Source: Lawsonibacter faecis (lineage in GTDB: Bacteria; Bacillota; Clostridia; Oscillospirales; Oscillospiraceae). Taken from it: 64,000 nucleotides of DNA. Position numbers and translations under genes: made by a program. Positions 8,817-62,627 of this stretch are shown one piece after another; the first letter of the stretch is position 1, and the number at the start of each line of letters is the position of its first letter. The DNA is taken from assembly GCF_014287675.1 (NCBI RefSeq), contig NZ_JACOPQ010000002.1, positions 168,649 through 232,648 on the forward strand. Reading direction: 5' to 3'. The notes beneath the pieces were generated by a model that was not told the DNA's origin, did no database searches, and was given only the letters and a program-made list of their open reading frames with translations.

Positions 8817-9143
8817 TTCTTCCATCACTTTTGCAAAAAAGGACAAAATACCCCCTAAATTTGCAGGTATTGCTTTTTATTTTCCATTTTGTTTGTATGA
8901 GTATACCAAATACCGCCTCTGTTTGCCTTCATTTTTTGATACTGTATCTGGATAAATCAACACAGTTATAGAATTGTTTTCTCTTGATATCCGCCTCCGT
9001 CCGGCCGCGGCGGCCCGCTCCTCCGCCGGAGTCCTCCAAAGGCGGGGCTTGCTTCCCGGGAGATTTGGCATTACAATAAAGGATATCATACGATGGAATT
9101 CAAACCCCCGGCAGCGCCCCGCGCCGCCGGAAAGGAGCGCTTT

Positions 9144-10214: not shown

Positions 10215-11540
10215 CTACACCCTTCCCTCCCCGGGCAGCTCCACCACAAAGGTCGCGCCGCCGCCCGGAGTATCCTCCGCGCGGATGGTCCCGCCGTGGA
10301 GGGAGATGATCTCCCGGGCGATGCACAGCCCCAGTCCGTAGTGCTCACGGTCGGTCCGGGCGCGGTCGGTCCGGTAGAACCGCTCGAAGACCCGCTCCTT
10401 CTCCCCGTCCGGGATGCCGGGGCCGGTGTCCGCCACGGTGAAGCGCACGCCGCTCCCCGCCCGCTCCACGCCCATCCCCAGGCTGCCGCCCGCCGGCGTA
10501 TAGGAAAGGCCGTTGTCCGTCAGAACGGTGAGCGCCTGGACCATCCGCTGCCGGTCCCACCGGAAGCGCCCCAGCGCCTTTTCGGGCAGCGCCACCGCCA
10601 GGCGGACGCCCTTCTCCCGGGCCGCGTGCTCGAAGCCCTCCGCCACGTCCAGCAGCAGGGTCTCCGGCTCCGCGTCCTCCAGGTACATGGTCCAGCTCCC
10701 GCTGTCGGCGTTGGCCAGGGCCAGCATATCCCCCACCAGGCGGGACATCCGCATACACTCGCCGTCCGCGAGCTGCGTAAAGTGCTCCGCCTTTTCAGGC
10801 GCAGCATCCTTCAGCGCCGACAGGCTGGCATGAATCACCGCCAGGGGCGAGCGCAGCTCATGGGAGGCCGCGGCGATAAACTCATTCTGCCGCCGCCTGC
10901 TCTCCGCCAGGGGACGGACGGCCCGCCCGGTGAAATACCACGCGAACAACGCCAGCAGCACCAGCGCCGCCAGGGTGAAGGCCCCAAAGGCCGTCCGCTG
11001 AACGGCGAGCTCCCGCTCCTCCTCCGCCATGGACTGGATGACCAGCGCCCCAATCCAACCCTTCTCCTGGGGGACCTTAGCCACGGCCGCCCGATAGCGC
11101 GCGAGCCCGCCGTCCTCAAAAAAGAAGGCGGTCTGGTCCGGCTGGCAGCGCAGATCCGGCTCCAGGCTCAGGTCGACGCCGTAGCCCTGCCACGCCGCCG
11201 CCCTGGCCCGCTCCACCAGCTCCCGCCGCCCGCCGCCGTCCGCCGCCGCGTAGAGGATGGGCTGTCCGGAGAGCTCCAGGTAGAGGGTCAGGTTCCCGCC
11301 CGCCTCCGTCTGGGAGATCCAGGTGTGGTCCACCACGGTCTGGCTGCGCAGGTGGTACAAAATGGCGTTCACGTCGCTCTGAAAGGCCGCCTCCGCCTTG
11401 GCGGTCAGCTGAATCTGGCTCACGGCCAGGGCCGCGCCGGACATGCCCAGGACAATCACCCCCGTGGCGGCGATGCAGAGGACCGTCAGCCGGAGGCGGA
11501 GGCGGCGGAAAAGGGCCTCCTCTCCCCCGTGCTCAGCCAT
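10215..11540 (-). CDS. Sensor histidine kinase (HisKA + HATPase_c), two transmembrane segments
   Basis: H-box ASHELRSPLAV; N/G boxes DTGPGIPDGEKERVFERFYR and GLGLCIAREII; its start overlaps the response-regulator stop by 8 nt. Confidence 0.9.
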   Translation of the reverse strand: MAEHGGEEALFRRLRLRLTVLCIAATGVIVLGMSGAALAVSQIQLTAKAEAAFQSDVNAILYHLRSQTVVDHTWISQTEAGGNLTLYLELSGQPILYAAADGGGRRELVERARAAAWQGYGVDLSLEPDLRCQPDQTAFFFEDGGLARYRAAVAKVPQEKGWIGALVIQSMAEEERELAVQRTAFGAFTLAALVLLALFAWYFTGRAVRPLAESRRRQNEFIAAASHELRSPLAVIHASLSALKDAAPEKAEHFTQLADGECMRMSRLVGDMLALANADSGSWTMYLEDAEPETLLLDVAEGFEHAAREKGVRLAVALPEKALGRFRWDRQRMVQALTVLTDNGLSYTPAGGSLGMGVERAGSGVRFTVADTGPGIPDGEKERVFERFYRTDRARTDREHYGLGLCIAREIISLHGGTIRAEDTPGGGATFVVELPGEGRV

Positions 11541-12213
11541 CGGCCTGCTCCAGGCGGTAGCCCACGCCCCGGACTGTTTTGACCTCCAGGCCGCCCCCCA
11601 CCTGATTCAGGCGGCGGCGGAGAAAGTAGACGTAGTTGTCCAAATTCCCCTCCTCCACCGGCGCGTCGGGCCCCCAGACCCGGGAGAGGAGCACGCTCCG
11701 TGGGAGGGTCTGGCCGGGATTGCGAAGCAAAGCCTCCATCAGGTCCCCCTCCCGGTGGGAGAGGGAGCACTCCCCCGCCGGACCGCTCAGAATGCGCTGG
11801 GCCGGGTCGAAGGTCACCCGGCCCAGGCGGAGCCGGGCGGCGCTCTCCCAGCCCCGGGGCCGCCGGCCCATGGCCCGGATGCGGGCGATCAGCTCCTCCA
11901 TGGCGAAGGGCTTGACCAGATAGTCGTCCGCCCCGGCCTCCAGCCCCTCCACCCGGTTGGCCACCGTGTCCAGGGCGGTGACAATCAGCACGGGGGTGGC
12001 AATGCCGTCGGCGCGCATCCGGCTGAGGACGGTGGTGCCGCTCATGGTGGGAAGCATCCGGTCCAGGATGACGAGGTCGTGGGCCTGCTGGCGGATCCAG
12101 CGCAGGCCGTCGTCCCCGTCGCTGCACACGTCCACGGTGAAGCCCTCCCGCTCCAGCTGGTAGCACACCGCCTCGCACAGCTTTCTGTCGTCCTCTACCA
12201 TTAAAATCCGCAT
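11533..12213 (-). CDS. OmpR-family response regulator
   Basis: MRILMVEDD receiver domain plus a winged-helix C-terminus (VGYRL). Start set at the internal Met of ORF 11533..12303. Confidence 0.9.
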   Translation of the reverse strand: MRILMVEDDRKLCEAVCYQLEREGFTVDVCSDGDDGLRWIRQQAHDLVILDRMLPTMSGTTVLSRMRADGIATPVLIVTALDTVANRVEGLEAGADDYLVKPFAMEELIARIRAMGRRPRGWESAARLRLGRVTFDPAQRILSGPAGECSLSHREGDLMEALLRNPGQTLPRSVLLSRVWGPDAPVEEGNLDNYVYFLRRRLNQVGGGLEVKTVRGVGYRLEQADG

Positions 12214-14835: not shown

Positions 14836-15354
14836 TCAGGCGTGCTGCGCCCTGCGCAGATACAGCGTGACCGGGTGCTGCATGAGGCGCAGGACGATAA
14901 ACTGGATGGGGATCATAATGAGGTTCTGCACAATCCGGGTGGGCAGAAGGGCCAGGAAGGGGCTGCCCGTCAGGATGGTGAGCCAGTAGGTGGACAGGCA
15001 CAGGCTGATGCCCAGGCAGTTGACCGCCACGGCCAGCGCCAGCCGGGGCCAGGCGGCCCTCTCCCTGTGGAGGAGCAGGCCGAAGACCACGCCGGTCAGG
15101 ACGGCGGAGAGGGTAAACCCGGGGAAATAGGCCCCGATGGGGAACAGCACCGCCCCCAGCAGATCGGCCGCGCCCCCGGCCACGCCGGCCCACACGGGGC
15201 CGTACAGCATGCCGCACACGGCGATGGGCACGAAGCCGAAGCCGATTTTGACGATGGGCGTGGCGATGGAACAGAAGCGGGAGAGGACGATTTCAATTGC
15301 AATCAGAGCGGCCACCTGTACCATGGCCCGGACATCCAGTTTCAACCTTTTCAA
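14836..15354 (-). CDS. folT: ECF transporter S component, folate family (FolT-like)
   Basis: Multi-TM roughly 175-aa protein immediately downstream of folC and under a THF riboswitch. The annotated GTG overlaps the RBS gaggagg, so a TTG 9 nt after the RBS was chosen; alternative starts are 15372 and 15324. Confidence 0.7.
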   Translation of the reverse strand: MKRLKLDVRAMVQVAALIAIEIVLSRFCSIATPIVKIGFGFVPIAVCGMLYGPVWAGVAGGAADLLGAVLFPIGAYFPGFTLSAVLTGVVFGLLLHRERAAWPRLALAVAVNCLGISLCLSTYWLTILTGSPFLALLPTRIVQNLIMIPIQFIVLRLMQHPVTLYLRRAQHA

Positions 15355-15385
15355 TCCGATATTCCTCCTCACAAGAGCGTATCAG

Positions 15386-16693
15386 TCAATACTCGCGGCC
15401 AAAGCAGGCGCGGACGGTCCCCGTCATGTAGAGGGAGCCCAAAGCGCAGACGAGGCCCTCCGGCCCCGCCGCCTCCCGCGCCGCGGCCACCCCCTCGGGG
15501 ACGCTGCCGCACACGCGCACGGGCAGGCCGCAGCCCCTCAGACAGTCCGCCAGCGCCTGGGCCGGTAGGGCGCGCGGATTCTCGGGCGCGACGGCCACGA
15601 AGCCCGCAGCCCTGGACGCCACCTGCTCAATCAGCCCCGCGTAGTCCTTGTCGGCCAGCACGCCCAGGAGGAAAACCGCCTTCTCCCCCGGGAAATAAGT
15701 ATCCAGATTGGCGGCCACCGTCCCCGCGCACTGGGGATTGTGTCCCCCGTCCACAACGAACCAGGGGGCTTCCCCCAGGATCTCAAACCGGCCGGGCCAG
15801 CGGGTCTCCTCCAGCCCCTGCCGCACCGCCCCGTCCGGAATGGTCCAGCCCCGGCCGCGCAGGGCCAGGACGGTCTCCAGCGCCACGGCGGCGTTGCGCT
15901 GCTGGTGGGCCCCCAGCAGGCCGATGCGCAGATCGCGGAAGGGCCCGTAGTCAAACCGCTGGCCCGCCCGGCTGTCCTCCAGCGTGCGCAGGGCGGAGAA
16001 GTCGGCCACCCGCAGGGGCACGCCCTCGGCCCGGCAGACCGCCGCCGCCACCTCCATCACGGAGGGCTTCTGCTGATACATCACGGCCACGCAGCCGCGC
16101 TTGATGACCGCGGCTTTCTCGGCGGCGATCAGCTCCACGGTGTCCCCCAGCTGCTGGGTGTGGTCCAGGCCGATGTTGGTCACCACCGCCGCCTCAGGCG
16201 GCGGGATGACGTTGGTGGAGTCCAGCCGTCCGCCCAGGCCCGCCTCCAGCACCACCGCGCCGCAGCCGCGGCGCCTGAAGTACTCCAGCGCGATGCAGGT
16301 GACCAGCTCGAACTCGGTGGGGTGGTCCTCCATCCCCTCGGCGTGCCGCCGGACAAAGGCGGCGACCTCCCCCAGCCCGGCGTCGGAGATCTCCTCCCCG
16401 TCCACCCGGATGCGCTCGTGGAAGCGCCGGAGATAGGGCGAGGTGTAAAGCCCCGTCCTCAGCCCCGACGCCCGCAGGATGGACGCCAGCATCGCGGCGG
16501 TGGAGCCCTTGCCGTTGGTGCCGACCACGTGGATGAATTTCAGGCCGCGCTCCGGGTTCCCCATCCGCTCCAGCAGCTCGAAGGTGCGGGAGAGGCCCGG
16601 CCTGCTCCCCAGCCAGTGATAGCTGTGGATGTAGTCGATGGCCTCCGCCCCCGTCATCGGTTCCGGGACCGGTTCTTCTGGTAAAATGGGCAC
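15386..16693 (-). CDS. folC: Bifunctional folylpolyglutamate synthase / dihydrofolate synthase FolC
   Basis: P-loop VVGTNGKGST and Mur-ligase-like core. GTG start preceded by ggagg with 8-nt spacing; ORF table 15386..16882. Confidence 0.88.
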   Translation of the reverse strand: MPILPEEPVPEPMTGAEAIDYIHSYHWLGSRPGLSRTFELLERMGNPERGLKFIHVVGTNGKGSTAAMLASILRASGLRTGLYTSPYLRRFHERIRVDGEEISDAGLGEVAAFVRRHAEGMEDHPTEFELVTCIALEYFRRRGCGAVVLEAGLGGRLDSTNVIPPPEAAVVTNIGLDHTQQLGDTVELIAAEKAAVIKRGCVAVMYQQKPSVMEVAAAVCRAEGVPLRVADFSALRTLEDSRAGQRFDYGPFRDLRIGLLGAHQQRNAAVALETVLALRGRGWTIPDGAVRQGLEETRWPGRFEILGEAPWFVVDGGHNPQCAGTVAANLDTYFPGEKAVFLLGVLADKDYAGLIEQVASRAAGFVAVAPENPRALPAQALADCLRGCGLPVRVCGSVPEGVAAAREAAGPEGLVCALGSLYMTGTVRACFGREY

Positions 16694-16786
16694 AAAAATA
16701 CCTCCTTCTGTTTTTGGCAGCCCGTCGCCCTTTTGATGACGGGAACGCCGCACAGAGGAGGTATTTTTGCAATAGCCCCGGTATGC
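16694..16786 (-). promoter_or_regulatory. Riboswitch expression platform: an anti-SD/SD sequestering helix
   Basis: aaaaatacctcctctg is complementary to cagaaggaggtattttt, the folC RBS; this suggests translational OFF control. Confidence 0.55.
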
Positions 16787-16908
16787 GGCAGCGGGATGCG
16801 GAACACGCACTGCAAGTACTCGGTACTTTTCGTCCGGCGGACAACTCCCCGTCCCGCCGGCACTGGGTCCCTTCCGGGACACTGCACGCGCATTCCTACT
16901 CTGCCTTT
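16787..16908 (-). ncRNA. THF (tetrahydrofolate, folT-motif) riboswitch aptamer in the folC-folT leader
   Basis: Minus strand reads GCAGAGUAGGAAUGCGCGUGCAGUG...GGAAGGGA...GGACGGGGAG...GCGUGUUCCGCAUCCCGCUGCC, matching the conserved THF-riboswitch blocks (AGAGUAG, CGCGU..AGUG, UUCCGCAUCCGCU). The gene context is folC/folT. Confidence 0.75.
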
Positions 16909-21832: not shown

Positions 21833-22043
21833 TAGCCGCAGGGCCGGGATGATAAATCCCGGCCCTGCGGCATACTTGGGAGGTTATCAGCGGTGTGGGC
21901 GGCCTGCCCGAAGCGTCAGAGGCTGAGGCCGCAAAGCAAAAAGCGGCGGCCCAATCCGGGGGCATCCGGGGCGGCAGACAAATCCTGTTTCGCTCCCCCT
22001 CGAATCGGCATATCATGTGTTATACCGATTAGGAGGTGCCAAT

Positions 22044-22505
22044 ATGATCATGCAGGCCATCGTCATCGAGGTTCAGTTGGGGCGTCTGCTCGTGCTGGAT
22101 CTGGATACACGGCAACAGGTCATTGTAAATACATCAGAGTTTCGCCGTTTTCGTACCGGCGACCTCGTGAATATCTGGTATAACGGTGTTATGACAAAAA
22201 GCATTCCCCCGCAGATTACCGCTCTGGGGATTATTGCGGTGCAGGGCGAGATGCCCCCTCTGTTTCCCCCGGGCGTCGCGCCCTGTCCGCCGAACGTGTG
22301 TCCGCCGGTGGTCAGGCCGCCTATCATCGTCCCGCCCATTTTCCCGCCGTTCTTCCCGCCCATCGTCCGCCCGCCGGTAGGTCCCCGTCCACCGGTGGGT
22401 CCCCGTCCCCCGGCGGGCCCACGTCCACCGGTCGGCCCACGTCCCCCGGCGGGCCCACGTCCACCGGTCGGCCCACGTCCCCCGGCGGGCCCACGCCCCA
22501 GATAG
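22044..22505 (+). CDS. Small protein of unknown function (paralog 1 of 3): conserved roughly 65-aa N-domain plus a proline-rich (GPRPPV/A)n tail
   Basis: RBS aggagg 7 nt before ATG. N-domain MIMQAIVIEVQLGRLLVLDLDTRQQVIVNTSEFRRFRTGDLVNIWYNGVMTKSIPPQITA is shared with the ORFs at 22757 and 57714. The tail is PVVRPPIIVPPIFPPFFPPIVRPP(VGPRPPAGPRPP)3. Confidence 0.65.
   Translation: MIMQAIVIEVQLGRLLVLDLDTRQQVIVNTSEFRRFRTGDLVNIWYNGVMTKSIPPQITALGIIAVQGEMPPLFPPGVAPCPPNVCPPVVRPPIIVPPIFPPFFPPIVRPPVGPRPPVGPRPPAGPRPPVGPRPPAGPRPPVGPRPPAGPRPR
22378..22497 (+). repeat. Coding tandem repeat, 18-bp unit (xGPRPP), about 6.5 copies
   Basis: ggtccccgtccaccggtg / ggtccccgtcccccggcg ... direct repeats. Confidence 0.8.
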
Positions 22506-22756
22506 TCCGGCCATGCCGCCCCCGACCCGGGGAGGCTTTTTATCCTTTGCCGCAAAAACAGCGCGCAGCGTCCATGTTTATCCCTCCCGCTCCCGGCCGG
22601 ATATCATAATTCCCGACGGACAAACTCCCCGGGAGGTGCGTCGCGCCCCGGCGGATTGCCGGGCAGCTTTTTTTCCACACCGGGCGGTATTTTGACACCT
22701 CCATCATGCTTTCGACATAGTATGCCATGTATGAATGATGGATGGAGGTGTCTTTT

Positions 22757-22966
22757 ATGAATACGACAATGTGTGCAACCGTCTGCAGGGTTCGCAGCGG
22801 TTCGCTGCTCGTCTGCGACCACTGCACAAACCAATTTGTAGTCGTCCATACAAACCGCGCCCGCTGTTTCTGCCCCGGCAGCCACGTCTGTATACACTAC
22901 AACGGCGTGATGGCCCAGAGTATGCCGCCTCAAATCAACGCCGACTGCATCGAGTGCTGCCGCTGA
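22757..22966 (+). CDS. Small cysteine-rich protein (paralog 2 of 3), 69 aa with 9 Cys
   Basis: RBS ggatggaggtg. LLVCDHCTNQFVVVHTNRARCFCPGSHVCIHYNGVMAQSMPPQINADCIECCR aligns with the paralog-1 N-domain (YNGVM..S.PPQI). Confidence 0.6.
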   Translation: MNTTMCATVCRVRSGSLLVCDHCTNQFVVVHTNRARCFCPGSHVCIHYNGVMAQSMPPQINADCIECCR

Positions 22967-23100
22967 CGCTTTCCGCCTGCCCGCCCGGGCAGGCGTTACA
23001 TCTCCCGCCCCTTTCCTCCTCCCCCTCTTCTTGCGCCGGACGCCGCCCCCTCACGGCCCCTTCCCCCGCCGCATAGGATGGGCCGAAGGAGGCGAATCCC

Positions 23101-23574
23101 ATGTCCGATCATCCCGGCCGTATTCCCCGCGTGCTGCTGGAGGGCCAGCCCGCGGCCCGCGCCCTCGTCAAGGGGGACGGCTCCCACCCCGAGCTGCGGG
23201 GCGAGGTCCTCTTCTACCCCTATCAGGAGGGCAGCCTGCTGCTGGTCCGGGCGGCGGGCTTCCCCGCCGACGGCTTCTACGGCTTCCATATCCACGAGCT
23301 GGGGGACTGCTGCACCGGCGGCGACATCCCCTTCTACTGCGCCGGCGGGCACTATAACCCCCAGGGCCGGGAGCACCCGGACCACGCCGGGGACCTCCCG
23401 GTCCTCCTCGCCAGCGGCGGGCGGGCCTATACCATCCTCTACACCGGCCGCTTCCGCCCCTGGGAGGTGCTGGACCGCTCGGTGGTCTTCCACGACCACC
23501 CGGACGACTACCGCTCCCAGCCCGCCGGAGACAGCGGCGGACGCATCGCCTGCGGCCCCATCGAGGCGGTCTGA
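23101..23574 (+). CDS. Cu/Zn superoxide dismutase family protein (SodC-like), with no signal peptide
   Basis: GFHIHELGDC, HPDHAGDLP and GDSGGRIACG are the Cu/Zn-SOD metal-ligand motifs; RBS gaaggagg. Confidence 0.75.
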   Translation: MSDHPGRIPRVLLEGQPAARALVKGDGSHPELRGEVLFYPYQEGSLLLVRAAGFPADGFYGFHIHELGDCCTGGDIPFYCAGGHYNPQGREHPDHAGDLPVLLASGGRAYTILYTGRFRPWEVLDRSVVFHDHPDDYRSQPAGDSGGRIACGPIEAV

Positions 23575-34561: not shown

Positions 34562-36670
34562 TTATTCGCCGGTCACGGCGTTCTGGGCGGCCACACGGCC
34601 GTAGTAGACGGCGGAGCCGATGGCCATGCCGCAGCAGGGGTACTCGGCGTCGAAGAGGCCGGTGAAGGCCACCTCGCCCGCGGCGTACAGGCCGGGGATG
34701 GGCTGGTCGTTGGTATCCAGCACGTGGGCGCCGGTGTCGATCTCCAGGCCGCCGAAGGTGACGGAGGAGCCGGGGGTCATGCGGAAGGCGTAGTAGGTGT
34801 CGCCCTCCACGGGGATCATATACTCGGCGGGCTTGCCGAAGTCGTCGTCGCTGCCCTTGGCGCACAGCTCATTGTAGCGGTCCACGGTGGCCTTGAGGGC
34901 GGCGCCGTCCATGCCGATCTGGGCGGCCAGCTCCTCGATGGTGGCGGCGTGGGGCACGGACTCAATCTGAATGCCGCCGGCCAGGGTGGGATAGGGCTCC
35001 ACGCACTTGCCGTCCTTGGAGGCGGTGATGTAGTAGCCGCAGGTGCTGTCCGCGTCGGCCAGGGCCTGGGCCACATGGGACTGGTAGGTCCACTCGTCCA
35101 CCACGCGGTCGCCGTCCTCGGAGACGATGAGGCCGGACTCCTCGTTGATGCCGCAGTAGCAGTCGTAGCTGACGTAGACCAGCTGGAGGCCGGGGGCGTC
35201 GAAGTTCTTGGCGCCCACCGCCACGGCCATGTTCAGGCCGTCGCCCACATTGGTCATGGGCACGCCGGAGTAGACGTTGGTGGGCAGGAAGTCGTTGTAC
35301 TTGGCCAGCATCTCCTCGTTGTGGGCATAGCCACCGGTGGCGAGGATGACGGCGGGGGCGTTGACGGTAATCTTGCTGCCGTCGGCCTTCTCGGCCTTCA
35401 CGCCGACCACGGCGCCGGCGGCGTCGGTGATAAGCTCGGTGGCGGGGCAGTTATAGAGGATCTGGCCGCCGGCGTCCTCATAGGTCTTGGTGAGGGGCAC
35501 GCAGAACTGGCCGCCGTGGCCGCTGGTCTGGCCGCCGCCGCCCTTGACGTTGTGGACGCGCCAGGGGGTCAGGGAGGAGTGGATGGGCTCCACGTCCTGG
35601 ATCTGGACGCCCCGGTCCACCAGCCACTGGATGTTCTCGGCGGAGGCGTCGCAGAAGGTGCGGACCAGGTCCTCGTTCATAATGCCGTCCCGGTCGTAGC
35701 TCATGAGGAAGTCGTACATCATGTCGGGGGTGTCGGTGAAGTTCTGGGCCTCCTGGGTCGAGGTGCCCGCGCCCAGAATCTTGCCGCCGCTGCGGGTGGT
35801 GGAGCCGCCGGTGACGCCGGTCTTCTCCAGCACTAGGACGTTGGCCCCCGCCTCCCTGGCGGTGACGGCGGCAGACAGGCCGGCCGCGCCGGCGCCCACG
35901 ACGACCACGTCCACGTCGAAGGTCTCGTCGGCGGGGGCGCTCTTCTCCACCACGGCGCTCTTCAGGGCCTCGGCGTCGCCGCCGGCCTTGGTGACGCACT
36001 CAGCCACGGCCTGCTTGATGGCGTTGCTGGTGACGGTGGCGCTGGTGACGCTGTCCACCGCCAGGGACTGAGCCTCCACGATAGCGGGGCCCATGGTCTC
36101 CACGGGGGAGGTCTTCAGGCCGTAGCCCAGGCCGTAGGTCTCCGTGTGGTCCTTCACCTGCACGTCGGTGATGGAGGCGTCGTCAAAGGTGACGGCCACG
36201 GTCATCTCGCCGTTGTGGCCCTTGACGGAGGCCTCGTAGGTGCCTGCCTGGTAGCCGGCGGCCTCGGGGGCCTCCTTCCCCATGGCCTCGTCCAGGCACT
36301 TCTGGACGGCGGCCTTGATGGCGTTGCAGGTGAGGGTGGCGCCGCTCTCCGTGTCCACCTCGGTGGACTGGGCGTCCAGGATCTTGGTCTTCATGGGGTC
36401 GGCGGCCACGCCGCCGATGCTCTCGGTCTCCACGGACGCGTCGATCTGGATGTCGGTGATGGCGGTGCCGCTGACGGTGACCTCCACCTTCACGGGGCCG
36501 TTCATGCCCAGGGACTCGGCGGTATAGGTACCGGCCTTGTAGACCGCCTCGGCAGCGGGGGTCTGGCTGGGCGTCTCGGACGGCTTCGTGTCGTCGCCGC
36601 CGCAGGCTGCCAGGGAGAGTACCATAGCCCCGGCCAGCGCAAGGGACAGGAGCTTCTTTGTGTGCTTCAT
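34562..36670 (-). CDS. Lipoprotein flavoprotein reductase: two FMN-binding domains plus a fumarate-reductase/urocanate-reductase-like FAD domain; likely extracytoplasmic
   Basis: Lipobox LSLAACG. Rossmann motif VVVVGAGAAGLSAAV...GANVLVLEK...GGST in an FRD/SDH-flavoprotein-like fold. Tandem FMN_bind-like N-terminal domains. RBS aacggaggtg. Confidence 0.75.
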   Translation of the reverse strand: MKHTKKLLSLALAGAMVLSLAACGGDDTKPSETPSQTPAAEAVYKAGTYTAESLGMNGPVKVEVTVSGTAITDIQIDASVETESIGGVAADPMKTKILDAQSTEVDTESGATLTCNAIKAAVQKCLDEAMGKEAPEAAGYQAGTYEASVKGHNGEMTVAVTFDDASITDVQVKDHTETYGLGYGLKTSPVETMGPAIVEAQSLAVDSVTSATVTSNAIKQAVAECVTKAGGDAEALKSAVVEKSAPADETFDVDVVVVGAGAAGLSAAVTAREAGANVLVLEKTGVTGGSTTRSGGKILGAGTSTQEAQNFTDTPDMMYDFLMSYDRDGIMNEDLVRTFCDASAENIQWLVDRGVQIQDVEPIHSSLTPWRVHNVKGGGGQTSGHGGQFCVPLTKTYEDAGGQILYNCPATELITDAAGAVVGVKAEKADGSKITVNAPAVILATGGYAHNEEMLAKYNDFLPTNVYSGVPMTNVGDGLNMAVAVGAKNFDAPGLQLVYVSYDCYCGINEESGLIVSEDGDRVVDEWTYQSHVAQALADADSTCGYYITASKDGKCVEPYPTLAGGIQIESVPHAATIEELAAQIGMDGAALKATVDRYNELCAKGSDDDFGKPAEYMIPVEGDTYYAFRMTPGSSVTFGGLEIDTGAHVLDTNDQPIPGLYAAGEVAFTGLFDAEYPCCGMAIGSAVYYGRVAAQNAVTGE

Positions 36671-53614: not shown

Positions 53615-54427
53615 TTATCGGGCCGTTTCGCTCTCAAGGTATTCCTCCAGGCAGAGGCCCTGCGTATAAATCTCCCGGGCCGCGGCCTGTCCCACGTAGC
53701 GGTAGTGCCAGGGCTCGTAGATGATGCCGGTGGTTTCGCTCTTCCCGCCGGGGTAGCGGAGGATGAAGCCGTACTCCCAGCTGTGGTCCATCAGCCACTT
53801 CTGGACGGCGGTCTCCTCCTGGCTCTCGTTCAGGTTCTGGTTATTGAGGTCCACAATATCCACCGCAAGGCCCAGCTGGTGCTCGCTGGTGCCGGGCACA
53901 GCCACGGCCTTGGCGGCCTCGGTCTCCGCCTCCGCCCGCGCATACCCCAGGGCGAGGAGCTTGTCCACCTGGTTATTGTAGAGCCGCTCCTGCCTGTCCG
54001 TCGAGCGGTAGGCGGAGCAGATCACCGGCGAGAGGCCCGCCGCCCGGCAGTCGTCCATCATCTCCTGGAGGGCGGGATAGCAGCGCTCGTCCACGAAGAG
54101 GCCGTTTTTCAGCTTCACCAGGGTCGCCTCGTACCCTTCGGGGAGGGGGTTCCAGGGGTTGACCAGAAGCAGCCGCCAGTCGTCGGCGGCGGGCTTGTCC
54201 GCCGCCGGATCGGACGCCGGGGGAGAAACGGCGTCCGGGGACACGGGCTGCGCCTCCTCCTGTACCACAAGCGTATCAATGCCGCCGGACGGCCATTCGG
54301 CCACCCAGCGGGCCCCCATGAGCAGCAGTCCCACCGCCACCGCCCCGGCCACCGCCAGCCGTGTACCTACGGTCCGCCGCCTGCGCCGCCGCGCGCGTAC
54401 CATGCCGTTTCCGTCTCTGCGTCCCAT
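53615..54427 (-). CDS. D-alanyl-D-alanine carboxypeptidase, VanY / peptidase M15B family, membrane-anchored
   Basis: SAYRSTDRQERLY, SEHQLGLAVD and EPWHYRYVG zinc-peptidase motifs; N-terminal Arg-rich + TM anchor. Start set at Met37 of ORF 53615..54535. Confidence 0.8.
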   Translation of the reverse strand: MGRRDGNGMVRARRRRRRTVGTRLAVAGAVAVGLLLMGARWVAEWPSGGIDTLVVQEEAQPVSPDAVSPPASDPAADKPAADDWRLLLVNPWNPLPEGYEATLVKLKNGLFVDERCYPALQEMMDDCRAAGLSPVICSAYRSTDRQERLYNNQVDKLLALGYARAEAETEAAKAVAVPGTSEHQLGLAVDIVDLNNQNLNESQEETAVQKWLMDHSWEYGFILRYPGGKSETTGIIYEPWHYRYVGQAAAREIYTQGLCLEEYLESETAR

Positions 54428-54513
54428 ATGAAAAATCACCCTTCTTTCTGTTGATGACAACAGGATAGAGGGGTGATTCCTCATGCCGGCAACGCTCCGG
54501 CATCCAAACGGCA

Positions 54514-55209
54514 TCAGAGGTTGAAATAAATCCATTCGCCCCGCAGGCGCAGGGCGGCCGACCGCCCGGAGGCCTCGCCCTCCGCCGCTTTAAAGAAGGT
54601 AAGGAGATAATCGCCGGACCCCTCCCCGTGGGCCTCCAGCGCGGCACTCACCTCATCCACGGGGTAATTGGTGCGGCAGTACTCCGCCACGGCCATGACG
54701 GACTCCTGGTACGGGCTTTTCACAAAGCTCACCGTGGGGACCCCCACCCGGATCTGGAGGGCCACCATCAGGCCGCTGCCGTCGTCCAGCCAGAGGGTTT
54801 CCCGGACGCCTGCGTCATCCGTCCACACGCAGCGCCAGTAGACGGCGCAGAGGCCCGGGTCCTCCCGGCTGGTGATGAGTACCGGCGTGACTGCGGGGAC
54901 GGTATAGACCATCCCCAGGGCCGACAGCTTGACCATCGTATCGGTGGCGGCGGCCCGGACCTCCTCCGCCGTCATCCGGCGGCCCCCGGCCAGCTCCACC
55001 TGGGACTGCCCCAGGTCGAAGAACGCCAGGGCCTCAAGGACGTCCATGTCCTGGGTCAGTACCAGCGAGACCTGGACGTCCTCCCGCTGGGAGATCTCCC
55101 CCAGCAGCCGCCGGTCCAGGGCCAGCGCGGTGATGCGCGGCAGGGCCGCGCCCACGCACAGAAGCAGGAGCGTGAGGAGGATGGGTATCAGCTTAGCAGC
55201 CCGCTTCAT
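54514..55209 (-). CDS. Secreted/membrane hypothetical protein co-transcribed with the two-component system
   Basis: Signal/TM N-terminus MKRAAKLIPILLTLLLLCVGA; overlaps the HK stop. Confidence 0.55.
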   Translation of the reverse strand: MKRAAKLIPILLTLLLLCVGAALPRITALALDRRLLGEISQREDVQVSLVLTQDMDVLEALAFFDLGQSQVELAGGRRMTAEEVRAAATDTMVKLSALGMVYTVPAVTPVLITSREDPGLCAVYWRCVWTDDAGVRETLWLDDGSGLMVALQIRVGVPTVSFVKSPYQESVMAVAEYCRTNYPVDEVSAALEAHGEGSGDYLLTFFKAAEGEASGRSAALRLRGEWIYFNL

Positions 55210-56606
55210 GCCGCGCCCCCTCTCAGCTCCGCCGTTACGGTGGTCCCCTGCCCCGGCGCGCTCTCAAAGCGGAGGGCTCCGCCGTGGAGCGCCGCGATCT
55301 CCCGGCACAGGGCCAGGCCCAGCCCCGCGCCCCCCTGCTCCCGGGAGCGGGATTTGTCCACCCGGTAAAAGGCGTCGGTCAGGTGCTCCAGGGCCTGGGG
55401 CGGAATACCCCGCCCGCTGTCCCGCACGGTAATGCGGCAGCCGCCGGGCAGCATTTCGGAGCGGACGCGGATCTCGCCCCCCCGGCCGTCCATGGCCTTG
55501 AGGGCGTTGTCCCAGAGGTTGACCAGCAGAGACTTGACGAGGTCCGGCTCCATGAGGCAGACCCCCTCGGCGCAGATGCAGGTGAGCGCCACCCCCTGCC
55601 GCGCGTAAATCGGCCCCAGATGGGCGGCCAGGCCCCGGATCAGGGCGGCGGGCCGGACCGGGACGAGGGACGCCCCGCCCCGCCTCAGCACCAGCAGGTC
55701 CATCAGCTTCTGGGAGAGGTTCTCCAGCCGCTTGCCCTCGGCCACGATATAGTTTGCGGCCTCGGCCTGCTCCTGGGGGCTCAGGGTCTGGCCCCGGAGC
55801 AGATCGGCATAGCCGATGATGGAGGTCATGGGGGTCTTCATCTCGTGGGCAAAGCTGCCCAAAAAACGCTCCTGCCGTTCCACCGCCTCCTCCAGCTGGG
55901 AGATGGTGCCCTCCAGCGCTTCGGCCATGGTGTTGAAATCCCGGGCGACGAGGCCAATCTCGTCCTCAGAGCGGACCCGCACCCGGCTGGAGAGCCGCCC
56001 GGAGGCCAGAGCCCGGGACGCCCCGGAGAGGCTCACCAGGGGCTTTGTGAGCACATGGGAGATGCTGTACGAGAGCAGGGCGCACAGGCCGGCGGTCAGA
56101 AGGAAGACCCACAGGTAGGTCTGCTGCTGCATCCGGCGGGTCTCGAAGAGGGACGAGATGTCCCGGGCCAGGTCCAGGCGGAGCGTCTCTCCCCCCGCCT
56201 CCAGGGCGCCGGTCAGGGCCAGGGCGTACCCGCCGCCGTCCGTGGGCACATAGCGCATCACGCACCGGCCGGGCTGCACGGGCTGCGGGGAAACGGCCAG
56301 CGCGGCGGGGCCGAACGCATAGACGCTCTCCCCGCCGGCGGAGAGGCGCAGGGCCGTCCAGGCCCCCCCGTTCCGGCCCGAGAGCTGCTCCAGCGTGGAG
56401 GAGATATCGGCGTAATCGGACTGGCCGGCGGCGCTGTTGACGATGCGCAGGGTGCCCACCACCATCTGGTAGGCGTTGTACGCCGCCTGCTGCTCCCGCT
56501 CCAGCGTGTTCTGAAACGAGATGGAGATGAGCAGGCTGCCCCCCACGCCGAACAGAACCGACAGCAGCCCCAGCATACAGAGGGTCATCTTCAGGCGAAA
56601 CTTCAT
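55206..56606 (-). CDS. Sensor histidine kinase (HAMP-HisKA-HATPase)
   Basis: H-box SFAHEMKTPMTSIIGYADLL; G-box GGAGLGLALCREIAALHGG; two TM segments. Confidence 0.9.
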   Translation of the reverse strand: MKFRLKMTLCMLGLLSVLFGVGGSLLISISFQNTLEREQQAAYNAYQMVVGTLRIVNSAAGQSDYADISSTLEQLSGRNGGAWTALRLSAGGESVYAFGPAALAVSPQPVQPGRCVMRYVPTDGGGYALALTGALEAGGETLRLDLARDISSLFETRRMQQQTYLWVFLLTAGLCALLSYSISHVLTKPLVSLSGASRALASGRLSSRVRVRSEDEIGLVARDFNTMAEALEGTISQLEEAVERQERFLGSFAHEMKTPMTSIIGYADLLRGQTLSPQEQAEAANYIVAEGKRLENLSQKLMDLLVLRRGGASLVPVRPAALIRGLAAHLGPIYARQGVALTCICAEGVCLMEPDLVKSLLVNLWDNALKAMDGRGGEIRVRSEMLPGGCRITVRDSGRGIPPQALEHLTDAFYRVDKSRSREQGGAGLGLALCREIAALHGGALRFESAPGQGTTVTAELRGGAA

Positions 56607-56607
56607 C

Positions 56608-57261
56608 CTATACCTCCAGGCGGTAGCCCACCTTGTTCACCGCCTGGAGCTGCTTCTCCCAGCCCACCTTTTTCCGCAGGCGCTGCACGTGCAGGTCCAC
56701 CGTCTTGCTGCCGAACTGGTACTCCTCGCCCCAGACCCGCTCGTAGATGGTCTCCCGGAACAGGGCCCGGCGGGGGTTCCGGGCGAAGAGGAGCAGCAGG
56801 TCGTACTCCTTTTTGGTCAGGGCAATCTCCGCGCCGTCCCGGCGCACCTGCATGGCGCAGGGGTCAATCTCCAGGCCGCCCACCCGGAGCACCGCCTCGT
56901 TCTTCCGCCAGCGGCGCAGCACCACGTCCACCCGGGCCAGCAGCTCCACAATTTCAAAGGGCTTGACGATATAGTCCTCAGCCCCGGCCCGGAGGCCCCG
57001 CACCCGGTCGTTCACCGCGTTTTTCGCCGTGATGAAGATGACCGGCATCTCCATGGGGCGGATGTACTCCATCAGCTCAAAGCCGTCGATCTCGGGGAGC
57101 ATCACGTCCAGCAGGACGAGGTCATAGCGGCCCCGCTCCAGCAGATCGGCGGCCTCCGCCCCGTCAAAGGCGCAGGTACAGGCGTAGCCCTCCTTGGTCA
57201 GGCTGAGGCGAAGCAGATTGGAGATGGGCTTCTCGTCCTCCACAATCAGGATTCTTATCAT
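56608..57261 (-). CDS. OmpR/VanR-like response regulator
   Basis: MIRILIVEDEKPI receiver domain; winged-helix C-terminus VGYRLEV; RBS aaggaggg. Confidence 0.9.
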   Translation of the reverse strand: MIRILIVEDEKPISNLLRLSLTKEGYACTCAFDGAEAADLLERGRYDLVLLDVMLPEIDGFELMEYIRPMEMPVIFITAKNAVNDRVRGLRAGAEDYIVKPFEIVELLARVDVVLRRWRKNEAVLRVGGLEIDPCAMQVRRDGAEIALTKKEYDLLLLFARNPRRALFRETIYERVWGEEYQFGSKTVDLHVQRLRKKVGWEKQLQAVNKVGYRLEV

Positions 57262-57391
57262 GCTATCCCTCCTTACCGCCGCCCAGCATACATCGTTCCG
57301 GCATCAAAACGGCAACGGTTCTGAGGTATTGTACCGGATTTCGGCCCGCGCCGCAACTGCGCGGGCCGATGAAATGTAAGAGGTGTCATGA

Positions 57392-57428
57392 CAAAAAGAA
57401 AACCGCCCCGGAACGGGGCGGCGGGCGG
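57392..57428 (-). terminator. Terminator after the paralog-3 small protein gene
   Basis: ccgccccgttccggggcgg + ttttc on the minus strand. Confidence 0.6.
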
Positions 57429-57429
57429 G

Positions 57430-57714
57430 TCATCTGCGGCGGGGCGGGCGGCAGCCGCGGCACCCGAAGGGCGGGCGCACCACGGGCGGGAGCACCGTGG
57501 GCGGAAATACCGCCGGTATCAGCTCAATTCTCTGGGCGCTGATCTGCGGCGGAATGCTGTTGGTCATCACGCCGTTATACCAGATACGTACCAGGTCGCC
57601 GGGCTGAAACCGGTTGGCGGCGGGCGTATGGACCACCACTCTCTGCCGGGTCTCCCGGTCCAGTACCAGCAGACGCCCCCACTGCACGTCGAGCACGGCT
57701 GCATGCATTATCAT
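57430..57714 (-). CDS. Small protein of unknown function (paralog 3 of 3): conserved N-domain plus a short Pro/Cys/Arg tail
   Basis: MIMHAAVLDVQWGRLLVLDRETRQRVVVHTPAANRFQPGDLVRIWYNGVMTNSIPPQISA is about 60% identical to paralog 1; RBS ggaggtg. Its 5' region is near-identical to that of paralog 1. Confidence 0.65.
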   Translation of the reverse strand: MIMHAAVLDVQWGRLLVLDRETRQRVVVHTPAANRFQPGDLVRIWYNGVMTNSIPPQISAQRIELIPAVFPPTVLPPVVRPPFGCRGCRPPRRR

Positions 57715-58081
57715 GTCGGGCACCTCCAATCACTACAACACAGGATATGTCGGGAGAGGGCGGCGTGTGACGAATCCCGTCAGACGCCGCCGGAGGCGTG
57801 CAGAAAGACCGCCTGAGAGGGCCGCGGCCCTCTCAGGCGGTCTTTCATGATTTTTCCCCGTGCCCGGCGCTCATGCTGTGCCGGAAGTGCTCGCCAATCT
57901 GCATAAGCTCCCCGTAGGTGGAGATCTCCACGCCGGAGCGGTTGATATAGCTCTTCACCGCCGGCGGCAGAGAGGAGAAGTACCGCTCCATGGCCGGTTC
58001 CCTGTATTTCAAATTCATCACCCCGCTTAGTATGCCGCGAAACGACGGCCAGGGAGATGGTGGATGCTGGCAGCGGCGGCG

Positions 58082-58548
58082 TCAGCGGTTCAGGAGCCAG
58101 ACGCCGAAGTTGAGATAGGCCGCAAAGACCGACCACGCCAGATACGGAACCTGAAGCCAGGCGGCGGGCCTGTCGATTTTATAATAGGCCCGGATCATAA
58201 GCCCGACGGCGGCGGCCAGGGCGAGCAGCCACACAAAGGCGAAGAGGCGCAGCCCCAGAGCGAAGAACCACACGCTCCACAGGAGATGGCGAGCTGAAGG
58301 CCGTAGAGCGCAAGCGCCGCGCCGCGCCCCCTCCCGCGGGTCAGCCAGACCCGCGCCGCCCCGGCGCCCATGAGAATATACAAAATGCCCCAGACCACGG
58401 GAAAGGCCGCGGAGGGCGGCGTCAGCGGCGGCTTGGCGAGCCGCTCGTAGGCGGGCAGCCCTCTCATGACGGCAATGGCCGACAGTCCGCCGGCCGCAAG
58501 GGATATCAGGATAAACACAAGGTAGGGCATATATTTTTTCCATCTCAT
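58082..58548 (-). pseudogene. tspO: TspO/MBR family protein interrupted by a 1-nt frameshift
   Basis: N-terminal part (MRWKKYMPYLVFILISLAAGGL...ALALYGLQLAIS) is in the frame of ORF 58195..58548; C-terminal part (LWSVWFFALGL...WLQVPYLAWSVFAAYLNFGVWLLNR) is in the frame of ORF 58082..58558. The join is near 58278..58290 in a short C-run. Confidence 0.7.
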
Positions 58549-58946
58549 ACTTTATCACCCGTGGATAGTATGCCTGCCGGGAGGCGAAGTATGAACCCGA
58601 AGGTCCGCAAATCCTCCGCGTTCATTCGGCCCGGGCGGATGAGATGCAGGGCGCGGAACAAAAAAAGGGGGCCGCCCACGAAATCAACGTCTTTCGGTAA
58701 AGCGTTTTCCCGTTCATCTGTCATTCAGAACTGGGCCGCGCAGCGGCGGACCGAAGGGAACCGCGCGGCCAACGAAAGCGCGGCCCCACAGCCTGGCGCG
58801 CCCCGGGGCGGTCTCTCTTGCCCCTGCGGGACAATTCACCTCCCAGAATCCCTTTTCATAGGAGTAGCAGCCCCTGAATTTCCCTCTGAATCCTTTGGTC
58901 AGAGGTTTTTTGTCAAACGGAGGCGGCCCAGCGCGGCTGCGCCTTC

Positions 58947-61565
58947 CTATCCATCTGATTGGACGCTTTCGGCGATCTCGTCATTGCCGACGACTACAAT
59001 GTCGTCGCTGTCAAACTCACATTCCGCCAGCCCGGGGTTGATTCCCTTGTCCACCCGGTTGTATTTATTGTCCAAAGCGGTCAGGCATTCGTTTTTCCAG
59101 CTGATGCGGCCGCAGTAATCCGAAAACTTTTTAACAATGCTCGGCCCCAGCCTGTCGCTGTAGACGTCTGGCATCCGCAAAAGGAGCTGCGCCATATTCA
59201 GCAGCGCAGCATCCGATATTCCCTCACCGCTGGCCGAATGGTATTTTATTATCATATCCACGTACGTATGAACGGAATATGCAAAATAGCGGTAGGACGC
59301 CTTTTCAATCAGCTCCTCAATCTGCTTTTTTCCTATGTCAAAATAATACTGCGCATGCTGCGGCTCATTGTAAACGCCCCATACCCCCCAGGTCATATAA
59401 TTTTTGGCCTGCGCATGCTTTACATGGTAAGAGGTATTATTGCGAATCGCCGCCGCCTCGGAAAACGCATTGTTCGCCTCTTCAAAATGTTCCATGTCCC
59501 GGTGCAGGATACCCCGCTGCACCCAATAATAGCTTAGATGCTTACACACCTTCTCAATCTGCAAAAACAGGTTGAGCATCATGGAATCGTCGAGCTGCAA
59601 TTGTTTGCGCAGGCTTTTAATCTTAAGCAGCTTTTGGAATATTTCGTTTTGAACCGTCTCCTCCTGCTCGCTGAGGTTCCGGGCGAGGAAGCGCACGGCA
59701 AAGTTGATCCAGGACAAAAGCTCGTCCCGGTCCAGCTGCGTTTGCACCGACGCCCACAGAAGCCGGGAGCACCGTATGGAAATCCGGTCGTCCTGCAGGC
59801 GGATTAGGTCGGCGTAGTCCAGCGCGAATGTGTGCATGTCCACCTCCAGCCCGCAGCCGGAGAGAATATTGGAAAAAAGCGCTGCGGAAATCTCTGATAT
59901 GTCCAGAGCGCCAAACGTGCTGAGGATGAGAAAGGCCGTCTTGTTTTGGGACGCCTGCATGCGCTCAATCATGTCGGAAAAATAGCTGACAAACTGGCGC
60001 CCCTCCTGCGCCGTATAAAGCACGTCAATCAGGTCGTTCAGCTTCCGGATATAGTCGATGCACTCCTTCCGCGTGTTCCCGTAAAGCCGCAGTTTGTTCA
60101 GGTGATTTGTCTCCTCCAGCTTGTCGTAGATATTGGCCGCCTGGCGCCCGTCTTTTGTCTTTTCGGAAATATAGACCTCTTCCAGGCTCTCGTAGGAATC
60201 CAATAAATATTTCTTTGAATTGTGGTCCTGCAGACTGCCCGTACAGATAAAGATCAGGCTGCTGACGTTAGGCGGGCATTTATTGAGGATATCCTTTACA
60301 CGATTGTAGTAGTACGACATCCTCTCCGCCAGAATCGCCACCTTTGCCCCCTCGGGGAGGACCTCCAGATATTCGATAATCCGCTCCTGGTATGCGGTCG
60401 CGTTCATGGAATAGGGGAGGTTGAAGACGGAAAACTCATAGTCAAGCCGCATCAAATCCACGCCAAGCCGAATGGCCGCGCATGTTTTCCCCACATACGC
60501 CTCGCCATAAATCGCCACCAGATGATGCTTCCCTTTGGACGCGAGGGCCTTGGCCCTCCCGTCCACCTGCGGCCTTATGATATCAATATTCTTGATGAAG
60601 TCGTACGGCCGCGGCGGCGCCCCCATGTATAATTCGCTCATGTATTGATTGAGCTTGTTCTCATCCGCCGGGACCTGCTCGTCATAGAAAACCATTCCAT
60701 AATCGCGCATTTTCCGCCGCGCCTCGCCCACCGCTGCAATGCGGTCTTTGATCGTGGTCAAGAATTTCTGCGCCGTCCAGGGGATAAAGTGCATGTTCCG
60801 CTTTTCCTCAATTTTGCGCACAAGCTTCCGATTGTTGATCTTGGGCGAGACAAAGAAATAATGGGGCGGCTGGACAATTTCAACCATGGAATTGAGCTGC
60901 TGGATGATAAGCTGCAGGTCCTCCTCCTGAAATTCCGTCCCCAGAAAGACGACGTCATTGGTCAGGGAGAGATATCCGAACGTGTTCAGCGCCCAGCTGG
61001 GGATCGCTTCATAGTTTCTGTATTCGGCGGAGTCAAAGACGAAGCCCAAATCCGGTCTGTTTACAGAGCCGTGCAGCTTGTACAGCTCCAGCGAAGTCCC
61101 GTTGTGCAGCGTGGAGCATTGCTTGACATGGACAAGAGGGCGCTGCTTCGCCGGCACGTTTGAATAAATGGCCTCGACCAGATCGTCAATATTCAGTGTA
61201 AAAATATGCCGCCACGGGTAGTCCAGCAGGAACATATGAAAATCGCCGCTTAAGCAGCGGCAGCCCGAAAAGCGCTTTTGCAGGAAGCGGTCCCTCTGCT
61301 CCACTAGGTGTTCCATCTCAATGTTGTCGCAGGTTTTCTTCAAATCGGAGCGTTCGGCCCAGTAATCCTCCAAATCCTCCTTCTTAACCGTCTTGCTTTT
61401 GGCCAAGACTTCGTCAAACAGTTCTCCGGCCAACTCGCTGCCGGCCGGCAGCGGTTTGCCGTCCTGGCTCTGGATACCCTTGGAAAAGCCGGCGCCCAAA
61501 ACAAGGATTGGCGTGCGGATCGACATTCTATCAATCAAAAGCTGTTCATCGCCGACAAGATACAT
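58947..61565 (-). CDS. SIR2_2 (sirtuin-like, DHS-like NAD-binding) domain + P-loop NTPase + C-terminal helical-repeat protein; Avs5-like (SIR2-STAND) antiphage defence candidate
   Basis: SIR2_2 blocks ILVLGAGFSKG...PLP, IFTLNIDDLVE and LYKLHGS...FDSAEYRNY. Walker A GEAYVGKT. Long alpha-helical C-terminal region. Start at MYLVGDEQ after ggagga; alternatives are 61580 and 61670. The region has lower GC than its flanks. Confidence 0.7.
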   Translation of the reverse strand: MYLVGDEQLLIDRMSIRTPILVLGAGFSKGIQSQDGKPLPAGSELAGELFDEVLAKSKTVKKEDLEDYWAERSDLKKTCDNIEMEHLVEQRDRFLQKRFSGCRCLSGDFHMFLLDYPWRHIFTLNIDDLVEAIYSNVPAKQRPLVHVKQCSTLHNGTSLELYKLHGSVNRPDLGFVFDSAEYRNYEAIPSWALNTFGYLSLTNDVVFLGTEFQEEDLQLIIQQLNSMVEIVQPPHYFFVSPKINNRKLVRKIEEKRNMHFIPWTAQKFLTTIKDRIAAVGEARRKMRDYGMVFYDEQVPADENKLNQYMSELYMGAPPRPYDFIKNIDIIRPQVDGRAKALASKGKHHLVAIYGEAYVGKTCAAIRLGVDLMRLDYEFSVFNLPYSMNATAYQERIIEYLEVLPEGAKVAILAERMSYYYNRVKDILNKCPPNVSSLIFICTGSLQDHNSKKYLLDSYESLEEVYISEKTKDGRQAANIYDKLEETNHLNKLRLYGNTRKECIDYIRKLNDLIDVLYTAQEGRQFVSYFSDMIERMQASQNKTAFLILSTFGALDISEISAALFSNILSGCGLEVDMHTFALDYADLIRLQDDRISIRCSRLLWASVQTQLDRDELLSWINFAVRFLARNLSEQEETVQNEIFQKLLKIKSLRKQLQLDDSMMLNLFLQIEKVCKHLSYYWVQRGILHRDMEHFEEANNAFSEAAAIRNNTSYHVKHAQAKNYMTWGVWGVYNEPQHAQYYFDIGKKQIEELIEKASYRYFAYSVHTYVDMIIKYHSASGEGISDAALLNMAQLLLRMPDVYSDRLGPSIVKKFSDYCGRISWKNECLTALDNKYNRVDKGINPGLAECEFDSDDIVVVGNDEIAESVQSDG

Positions 61566-61859
61566 CAGAATTTCCTCCATATGTATATTTGAATACACGA
61601 ATGTGTCAAATATACATATTATACGACAGGGCAAATCATGTTGCAATCGAAATTTGGCGATTTTTCTCAAAAGGCGGAAATCAATTCACTGGTTATTTGT
61701 GCGTTATTCCGGCAGTACAAGGAAAGCTCTGCTCCCAAAAACAGAAAGCCCTTGCAATCACTAGCTTTTCTAGCAATTGCAAGGGCTCCAAGAGTGTAAC
61801 ACACAAACAAAATAGATGCCACGCAGTCTTGCCCAACCGTTTGAATAACTAAAAAATAA

Positions 61860-62536: not shown

Positions 62537-62627
62537 TGGCGGAGAGAGAGGGATTCGAACCCTCGGTACGCTATCAACGTACACACGATTTCCAATCGTG
62601 CGCCTTCGTCCACTCAGCCATCTCTCC
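62537..62627 (-). tRNA. tRNA-Ser (anticodon GGA), class II with a long variable arm, encoded CCA
   Basis: Minus strand GGAGAGAUGGCUGAGUGGACGAAGGCGCACGAUUGGAAAUCGUG...GGUUCGAAUCCCUCUCUCUCCGCCA; acceptor stem GGAGAGA/UCUCUCC. Confidence 0.85.

Follow-up and report, generated by a model that had tools for sequence, protein, structure and literature searches.

The small gene P3 and its paralogue P1 share a block of sequence immediately upstream of their start codons that is probably a promoter of the sigma-K type followed by a short leader. The same type of box precedes a second paralogue, P2, and a Cu/Zn-superoxide-dismutase-like (SOD-like) gene in the window (the whole 64-kb stretch of DNA that was analysed), and it recurs in front of most members of an uncharacterised protein family from Oscillospirales and related genomes. 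On this reading the genes would be independently transcribed late mother-cell genes, and their products are most likely proteins of the spore coat or another outer layer of the spore.

P3 and its paralogues

The window encodes three members of the family:

57430..57714, minus strand: P3, 94 amino acids plus stop (ORF and translation)
22044..22505, plus strand: P1, 153 amino acids, with an N-domain as in P3 and an 87-residue tail that is 45% proline
22757..22966, plus strand: P2, 69 amino acids, consisting of the domain only, with no tail

The P3 reading frame starts with an ATG at 57714 and stops with a TGA at 57430-57432 on the minus strand. Its translation, MIMHAAVLDVQWGRLL...PPVVRPPFGCRGCRPPRRR, comprises an OB-fold, DUF3221-like domain (residues 1-66) and a disordered tail of proline, arginine and cysteine (residues 67-94, PPVVRPPFGCRGCRPPRRR). 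When P3 was used as a tblastn query against the 64-kb window, exactly two further copies were recovered, P1 with an E-value of 1e-28 and P2 with an E-value of 1e-15, and the description of P3 as a third paralogue in the initial annotation is therefore upheld. The figure of about 60% identity to P1 that was given there is a fair one, since 42 of 63 residues of the N-domain are identical (67%; 71% at the nucleotide level) and identity over the whole tblastn alignment is 55%.

Proline accounts for 32% of the tail of P3, as against 45% in P1, where the tail includes PPVGPRPPAGPR-type tandem repeats (22374..22495) with repeat units of 18 and 36 nt. The tailless P2 has ten cysteines, which make up 14.5% of its residues. 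In L081, a locus from a metagenomic relative whose genome is 96% identical, the orthologue of P3 (4001..4315) has a 10-residue insertion, PVIVPPVFFP, in its proline-rich tail, and only a single base differs between L081 and the window over the 118 nt upstream of P3. From the tail insertion on the one hand and the one changed upstream base on the other, it follows that the tail alters its length rapidly while the promoter stays fixed.

A mosaic arrangement was seen in P0002, a protein of 99 residues from a Logan contig of 948 nt. Its N-domain is identical to that of P0006 (Lawsonibacter celer-type) over approximately 60 residues, whereas it shares its C-terminal part (QRIELIPAVFPP...FGCRGCRPPRRR) with P3. 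P0002 is either the product of recombination or gene conversion between paralogues or an assembly chimera.

A conserved block upstream of P1 and P3

It had been noted initially that the 35 nt before the ATG are nearly identical in P1 and P3, and our alignment agrees with this. The P3 block cgaCATATCCTGTGTTGTAGTGATT-GGAGGTGCC and the P1 block cggCATATCATGTGTTATACCGATTAGGAGGTGCC are identical at 29 of 35 positions with one gap, and the block extends from three bases before CATATC through GGAGGTGCC. The 60-nt upstream regions of the two genes align with a local score of 23, where the maximum reached by 5000 shuffles was 15. When the Shine-Dalgarno sequence was left out the score was 15, a value that was equalled in one of the 5000 shuffles. 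The 15-nt core of the block, ATATCMTGTGTTRTA, is present at exactly two places in the 64 kb, against an expectation of 0.03 when up to two mismatches are allowed. A third match to the core at 9072..9086 (minus strand), with two mismatches, reads GATATCC, lacks the C of CATA and has no Shine-Dalgarno sequence and start codon, and was set aside as a chance occurrence.

Beyond the block the similarity ends abruptly. The box and leader are identical in 20 of 25 positions, as opposed to 6/17 in the 17-nt spacer just upstream, and the next segments give 10/20 and 6/20. Because third codon positions of P1 and P3 are only 49% identical and identity upstream drops in this way, the block is conserved above the level of neutral sites. 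It might still be supposed that the similarity is a neutral remnant of the duplication that has no common regulatory meaning, and P1 and P3 do share bases beyond the family consensus (TGTGTT, GATT), as fits common descent of the cassette. However, the divergence of synonymous sites and of the spacer, set against the preserved box and leader, speaks against such a remnant, as does the distribution of the box across the family described below.

Anatomy of the promoters in the window

The elements at the four genes, together with the features that delimit P3, are as follows:

57721..57727, minus strand: P3 Shine-Dalgarno sequence GGAGGTG, 6 nt before the ATG (sequence and coordinates checked)
57734..57736, minus strand: predicted P3 start region, placed at +13 to +15 from the C of CATA, which would give a leader of about 20 nt
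57741..57749, minus strand: P3 -10 element CATATCCTG, of the form CATAnnnT(G/A) (coordinates checked)
57767..57768, minus strand: P3 -35 element AC, 17 nt upstream of the -10 box
57402..57422, minus strand: P3 intrinsic terminator, a 9-bp GC-rich hairpin (GCCGCCCCG-TTC-CGGGGCGGT) followed by a T-run
57803..57846: 20-bp hairpin that terminates the 58-amino-acid gene preceding P3
21990..22017, plus strand: P1 promoter, with TC at -19/-18, a 17-nt spacer and CATATCATG at 22009..22017
22697..22724, plus strand: P2 promoter, with AC, a 17-nt spacer and CATAGTATG at 22716..22724
23053..23080, plus strand: promoter of the SOD-like gene, with AC, a 17-nt spacer and CATAGGATG at 23072..23080
23101..23574, plus strand: Cu/Zn-SOD-like gene, 157 amino acids (Pfam Sod_Cu, E=1.4e-24)

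At P3 the -10 box is separated from GGAGGTG by 13 nt. The box is non-coding, because in-frame TAG and TGA codons lie 6-7 codons upstream of the ATG, and the 20-bp hairpin confines the P3 promoter to 57715..57802. A scan of 57250..57950 for promoters of the sigma-70 type returned no sites. When the strict motif was sought in the 64-kb window in combination with a Shine-Dalgarno sequence and a start codon, it was plausible only at P1, P2, P3 and the SOD-like gene. A further carrier of the strict motif is an antisense ORF and is not credible. Looser CATA matches before a flavoprotein gene (34562..36670) and a response-regulator gene (11533..12213) lack the -35 C, stand in front of ordinary genes and were ascribed to chance.

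The promoter motif across the family

A word-indexed protein search yielded 23 close relatives of P3, all of them unnamed or "hypothetical". Scanning one genome per GTDB species extended this to at least 215 encoded relatives, for which 80 loci were fetched, with hosts in the Oscillospiraceae, Ruminococcaceae, Butyricicoccus, Christensenellales and similar taxa. Start codons were re-called for 84 family genes, drawn from about 80 genomes of Oscillospirales and related groups, and 329 ORFs with a good ribosome-binding site from the same loci were used as controls. CATAnnnT is present 20-50 nt before the start codon of 74/84 family genes and of 6.7% of the 329 controls, and the longer motif C-N17-CATAnnnT is found at 62/84 family genes and 3.6% of the controls. 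An unanchored k-mer comparison gave the same picture: CATA is the most enriched 4-mer, occurring at 78/83 family genes as against 54/329 controls (P=1.6e-41).

Alignment of 73 non-redundant promoters on CATA produced the following family profile, in which positions are relative to the C of CATA:

-22: G in 43/73
-21: G or T in 59/73
-19: A in 36/73 (49%)
-18: C in 61/73 (84%)
-17: C or A in 63/73
+8: G or A only (56 G, 17 A)
+12: T in 53/73 (73%)
+13: A in 49/73 (67%)

It can be seen that bases are conserved on both sides of a spacer whose length is kept and whose sequence is not. The signature persists even in AT-rich Ruminococcus loci (for example CATATAATA), in which nothing else resembles the window sequence. 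The likeness between P1 and P3 is thus neither limited to the Shine-Dalgarno sequence nor private to these two genes, as the CATA box is present at the great majority of family genes in other genomes. The -10 element, the start-site region and the ribosome-binding site have been retained in dozens of genera despite divergence of the spacer and of synonymous sites, and this bears out the earlier suggestion of a shared regulatory site under selection. With the same box at the same distance in so many genera, AT-rich Ruminococcus included, a neutral duplication remnant is a most improbable explanation of what P1 and P3 have in common.

At four loci (L013, L019, L020 and L038) the -35 position is immediately preceded by an exact GGACAAGC, approximately 21-28 nt upstream of the CATA box. 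This sequence agrees with the idealised site bound by SpoIIID, a regulator of the mother cell. It is absent upstream of the three window copies, P1, P2 and P3.

Comparison with sigma-K promoters

Sporulation promoters have been mapped in C. difficile by Saujet et al. [quoted passage not shown] From Table S7 of that study we parsed the 22 mapped sigma-K promoters with a placeable -10 box as a reference set. These promoters read gtAACa, a spacer with a mode of 17 (mostly 15-18) and CATAnnnTA, and their transcripts start at +13 from the C of CATA in 16/22 cases, typically at the A of a TA.

The family promoters are like the sigma-K promoters of C. difficile and B. subtilis in their -35 AC, their 17-nt spacer, their CATAnnnT-purine box and a weak upstream G-T/G, and also in having short leaders in front of small monocistronic genes. 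In addition, the TA at +12/+13 of the family profile falls where C. difficile transcripts start. They are unlike them in the last base of the -10 box, which is mostly G in the GC-rich genomes of the family and A in the sigma-K consensus. Within the window, a box of the CATAnnnT(G/A) type was found at P3, P1, P2 and the SOD-like gene. The -35 AC, rather than ATA, was sought 16-18 nt upstream of the box and was found behind a 17-nt spacer at P3, P2 and the SOD-like gene, whereas P1 departs from the sigma-K pattern with TC.

We found no mapped sporulation promoters for the Oscillospiraceae (the window has a G+C content of 64%), and Pfam annotation of 30 window genes, in which we sought an internal control, included neither sigK nor a canonical sporulation gene. 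The assignment of a sigma factor is therefore based on motif geometry from C. difficile and B. subtilis, and by the consensus of those organisms the block has sigma-K-type geometry.

Since the -10 sequences of sigma-E and sigma-K are very similar (PMC3789822), the main alternative is that the promoter is used by sigma-E, early in the mother cell, or by both sigma-E and sigma-K, in which case these would still be mother-cell sporulation genes, expressed earlier. The sole discriminator here is the -35 AC, which is a short element and which P1 replaces with TC. We nevertheless consider the involvement of sigma-E unlikely. AC at a spacer of 16-18 nt is present in 48/74 family promoters, as against 4/74 with ATA at a suitable spacing, the C at -18 is 84% conserved, and the fixed 17-nt spacer is the modal geometry of mapped sigma-K promoters. 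These features point to sigma-K as the factor that would use the family promoters. A point against any sporulation reading is that some host taxa in the match list are not known spore-formers.

The genomic neighbourhood of P3

The initial annotation placed P3 next to a VanRS-like/VanY-like cell-wall module, and a regulator, a kinase and a carboxypeptidase are indeed annotated beside it:

56608..57261: OmpR-type regulator, with P3 directly upstream
55206..56606: HAMP/HisKA histidine kinase (Pfam annotation of window genes)
54514..55209, minus strand: protein of 231 amino acids that matches nothing in Pfam or NCBIfam, encoded between the kinase and carboxypeptidase genes
53615..54535: VanY-family carboxypeptidase (Pfam annotation of window genes)

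The ends of the gene for the 231-amino-acid protein overlap both neighbouring ORFs as called, and the gene is also present in L081 and L082. Its product is probably an uncharacterised membrane partner of the VanRS/VanY-like module.

This adjacency raises the question of whether the shared block is the target of a regulator other than a sporulation sigma factor, be it the VanRS-like system next to P3, an ECF sigma factor, or a leader RNA that is structured or regulatory. The regulator, kinase and carboxypeptidase genes do follow P3 directly, and a regulator of 60% identity also stands beside a family gene in two related MAGs (L007 and L008; 2/80 loci). In those two loci, however, the genes are divergently oriented, and regulator adjacency overall is confined to about 4 of about 80 loci. 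The same arrangement of P3 and module was found only in L081/L082, from the 96%-identical metagenomic relative; there is no VanRS/VanY linkage in the remaining fetched loci, and none at P1 or P2, which carry the same block with no two-component system nearby. P3 is moreover bracketed by two hairpin terminators, one of which separates it from the regulator gene. ECF promoters have AAC at -35 and CGT at -10, and the GGnAC of the family loosely resembles ECF -35 elements, but the box is CATA and not CGT(A/C), and the A at -20 is not conserved. As for a regulatory leader, the three predicted leaders fold no better than shuffled sequences (z of +1.15, +0.51 and -0.05), and no Rfam family matches the region. 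We regard control by any of these three as very unlikely. We found no evidence of a functional link between P3 and the VanRS/VanY genes, and nothing that would place P3 in a cell-wall regulon.

Clustering of the ORFs across the 80 loci disclosed no operon partner of wide recurrence, apart from the SOD-like gene in four loci. Given that no neighbour recurs widely, we conclude that the family genes are stand-alone units.

Several other features of the window were recorded. The TspO/MBR gene at 58082..58558 (minus strand) has an apparent frameshift at approximately 58280..58294: compared with the 150-residue protein of L081, residues 1-84 are encoded in frame -2 and residues 81-150 in frame -1, so that it is either a pseudogene or the result of a sequencing error. 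The segment 58620..62535 has a lower G+C content, adjoins a tRNA (62540..62627) and encodes a SIR2_2-domain protein of 907 amino acids (gene 58947..61670). L081 has HATPase and Sigma70_r4_2 genes in its place, and the segment looks like a variable island that is possibly related to defence. A scan of the whole window against Rfam returned only a tRNA and a THF riboswitch (RF01831, 75.8 bits) at 16787..16905 (minus strand), and nothing near any of the paralogues. The riboswitch lies upstream of a FolC-like Mur-ligase-family gene (15386..16882) and an ECF transporter S-component gene (14836..15372).

The SOD-like gene and other carriers of the motif

The SOD-like gene adjoins P2 and has a promoter of the same type, and its product, judged by eye, lacks an N-terminal hydrophobic stretch of the signal-peptide kind. 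In four more loci, L028, L030, L036 and L060, a Sod_Cu gene comes immediately after the family gene. It has its own CATA-type box in the first three of these, and in L060 the start codon could not be placed. A superoxide dismutase, SodA, is a component of the C. difficile coat (bioRxiv 10.1101/2022.02.25.481979); that enzyme is of the Mn/Fe type, whereas the window SOD is of the Cu/Zn type (Sod_Cu).

The other genes with the strict motif in the fetched loci encode a leaderless Amidase_3+SH3 protein, an S8 subtilase and a 67-residue proline-rich protein that neighbours a family gene. Late mother-cell genes typically encode products of these kinds: leaderless Amidase_3 enzymes (CwlC of B. subtilis is one), proteases, and small proteins of low complexity. 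In L037 an extremely proline-rich ORF of 67 residues with PPKPPGPP repeats (2659..2862, plus strand), which has its own C-N17-CATATGCTG box, shortly precedes the family gene and is possibly a further coat-like gene of a small cluster.

Fold and relatives of the P3 protein

The three window proteins were compared with Pfam DUF3221, for which the cut-off is 26.4 bits. P3 scored 28.3, P1 21.3 and P2 16.0, with matches that span profile positions of approximately 40-81 out of 82. AlphaFold2, run with the family alignment, predicted a five-stranded barrel for residues 2-66 of P3, with a pLDDT of about 95-97 over residues 1-60 that drops to about 55 in the tail. Since the first strand of the barrel begins at residue 2, P3 has no signal peptide. 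The best PDB match to the model in a Foldseek search was B. subtilis YobA (2JQO; E=3e-3, TM 0.58), followed by OB-fold and cold-shock domains, and all of the E-values are weak (at least 3e-3). On the evidence of this model P3 contains an OB-fold barrel of the YobA type. A search of NCBIfam and a profile search of PDB sequences with the family gave no matches, and a literature search on DUF3221 turned up a single paper, which is unrelated.

The P3 family and YobA/DUF3221 have in common a small five-stranded OB-type barrel and a C-terminal region with a conserved motif of the YNG-MT-S-PPQI type, although at the sequence level only about the last 35 domain residues match. They differ in other respects. 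The solved YobA construct covers residues 21-120, whereas the window proteins begin at the first strand, without a signal peptide, and, unlike YobA, they have an extension or composition that is rich in proline or cysteine.

An exhaustive profile search recovered 698 clusters (50% identity) at E≤1e-3, many of them with 2-5 tandem copies of the domain, and some consisting of long secreted proteins with signal peptides. In P0033, P0034, P0119, P0132 and P0168, for instance, the domain is present in 3-5 tandem copies in secreted proteins that have signal peptides. Judged by eye, some of these five end in a sequence similar to the copper-amine-oxidase N-terminal-like 'stalk' domain of Firmicutes surface proteins. 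Given how many of the more distant relatives are secreted, with several repeats and a signal peptide, the domain cannot be regarded as spore-specific.

CdeC and CdeM of C. difficile are cysteine- or proline-rich proteins of the coat or exosporium, and the window proteins are likewise small, leaderless, of low complexity and rich in cysteine or proline. They also have a promoter of the late mother-cell type and are accompanied by an SOD-like enzyme. There is no sequence homology between the two groups.

A model for the family

We propose that sigma-K would recognise a cassette made up of a -35 AC, a 17-nt spacer and CATAnnnT(G/A), with transcription predicted to start about 13-15 nt past the C of CATA. 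The resulting leader of some 20 nt would hold only a strong Shine-Dalgarno sequence. P3, P1, P2 and the SOD-like gene would each be transcribed alone in late sporulation, and their products, having no signal peptide, would be made in the mother cell. There the small OB-fold domain, mostly with a disordered proline- or cysteine-rich extension, would assemble onto the spore surface. Localisation to the coat is probable in view of the type of promoter, the missing signal peptide and the disordered tails rich in proline or cysteine; a point against it is that OB folds also bind nucleic acids.

More tentatively, the family may represent structural spore-surface proteins specific to a lineage, that of the Oscillospiraceae, Ruminococcaceae and other gut Clostridia. 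The OB fold would here serve as an 'anchor' for fast-evolving proline- or cysteine-rich tails, expressed from sigma-K promoters, and a dedicated cytoplasmic partner, the Cu/Zn-SOD-like enzyme, might for instance help to cross-link the outer spore layer oxidatively. We put this forward as a possibility that is somewhat less than even.

Beyond Bacillus and C. difficile, very little is known of the proteins that make up spore coats. The Oscillospiraceae and Ruminococcaceae are abundant in the gut, and their spores are thought to be important for transmission from host to host. The regulation described here is of a textbook kind, and it is the protein family that is uncharacterised. A promoter signature transferable from C. 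difficile would make prediction of late-sporulation regulons practical in uncultured genomes, and the family, with its at least 215 genomic relatives, supplies concrete candidate spore-surface proteins. If the more tentative reading is correct, it would provide a first handle on the composition of the coat in a major and poorly cultured group of gut spore-formers.
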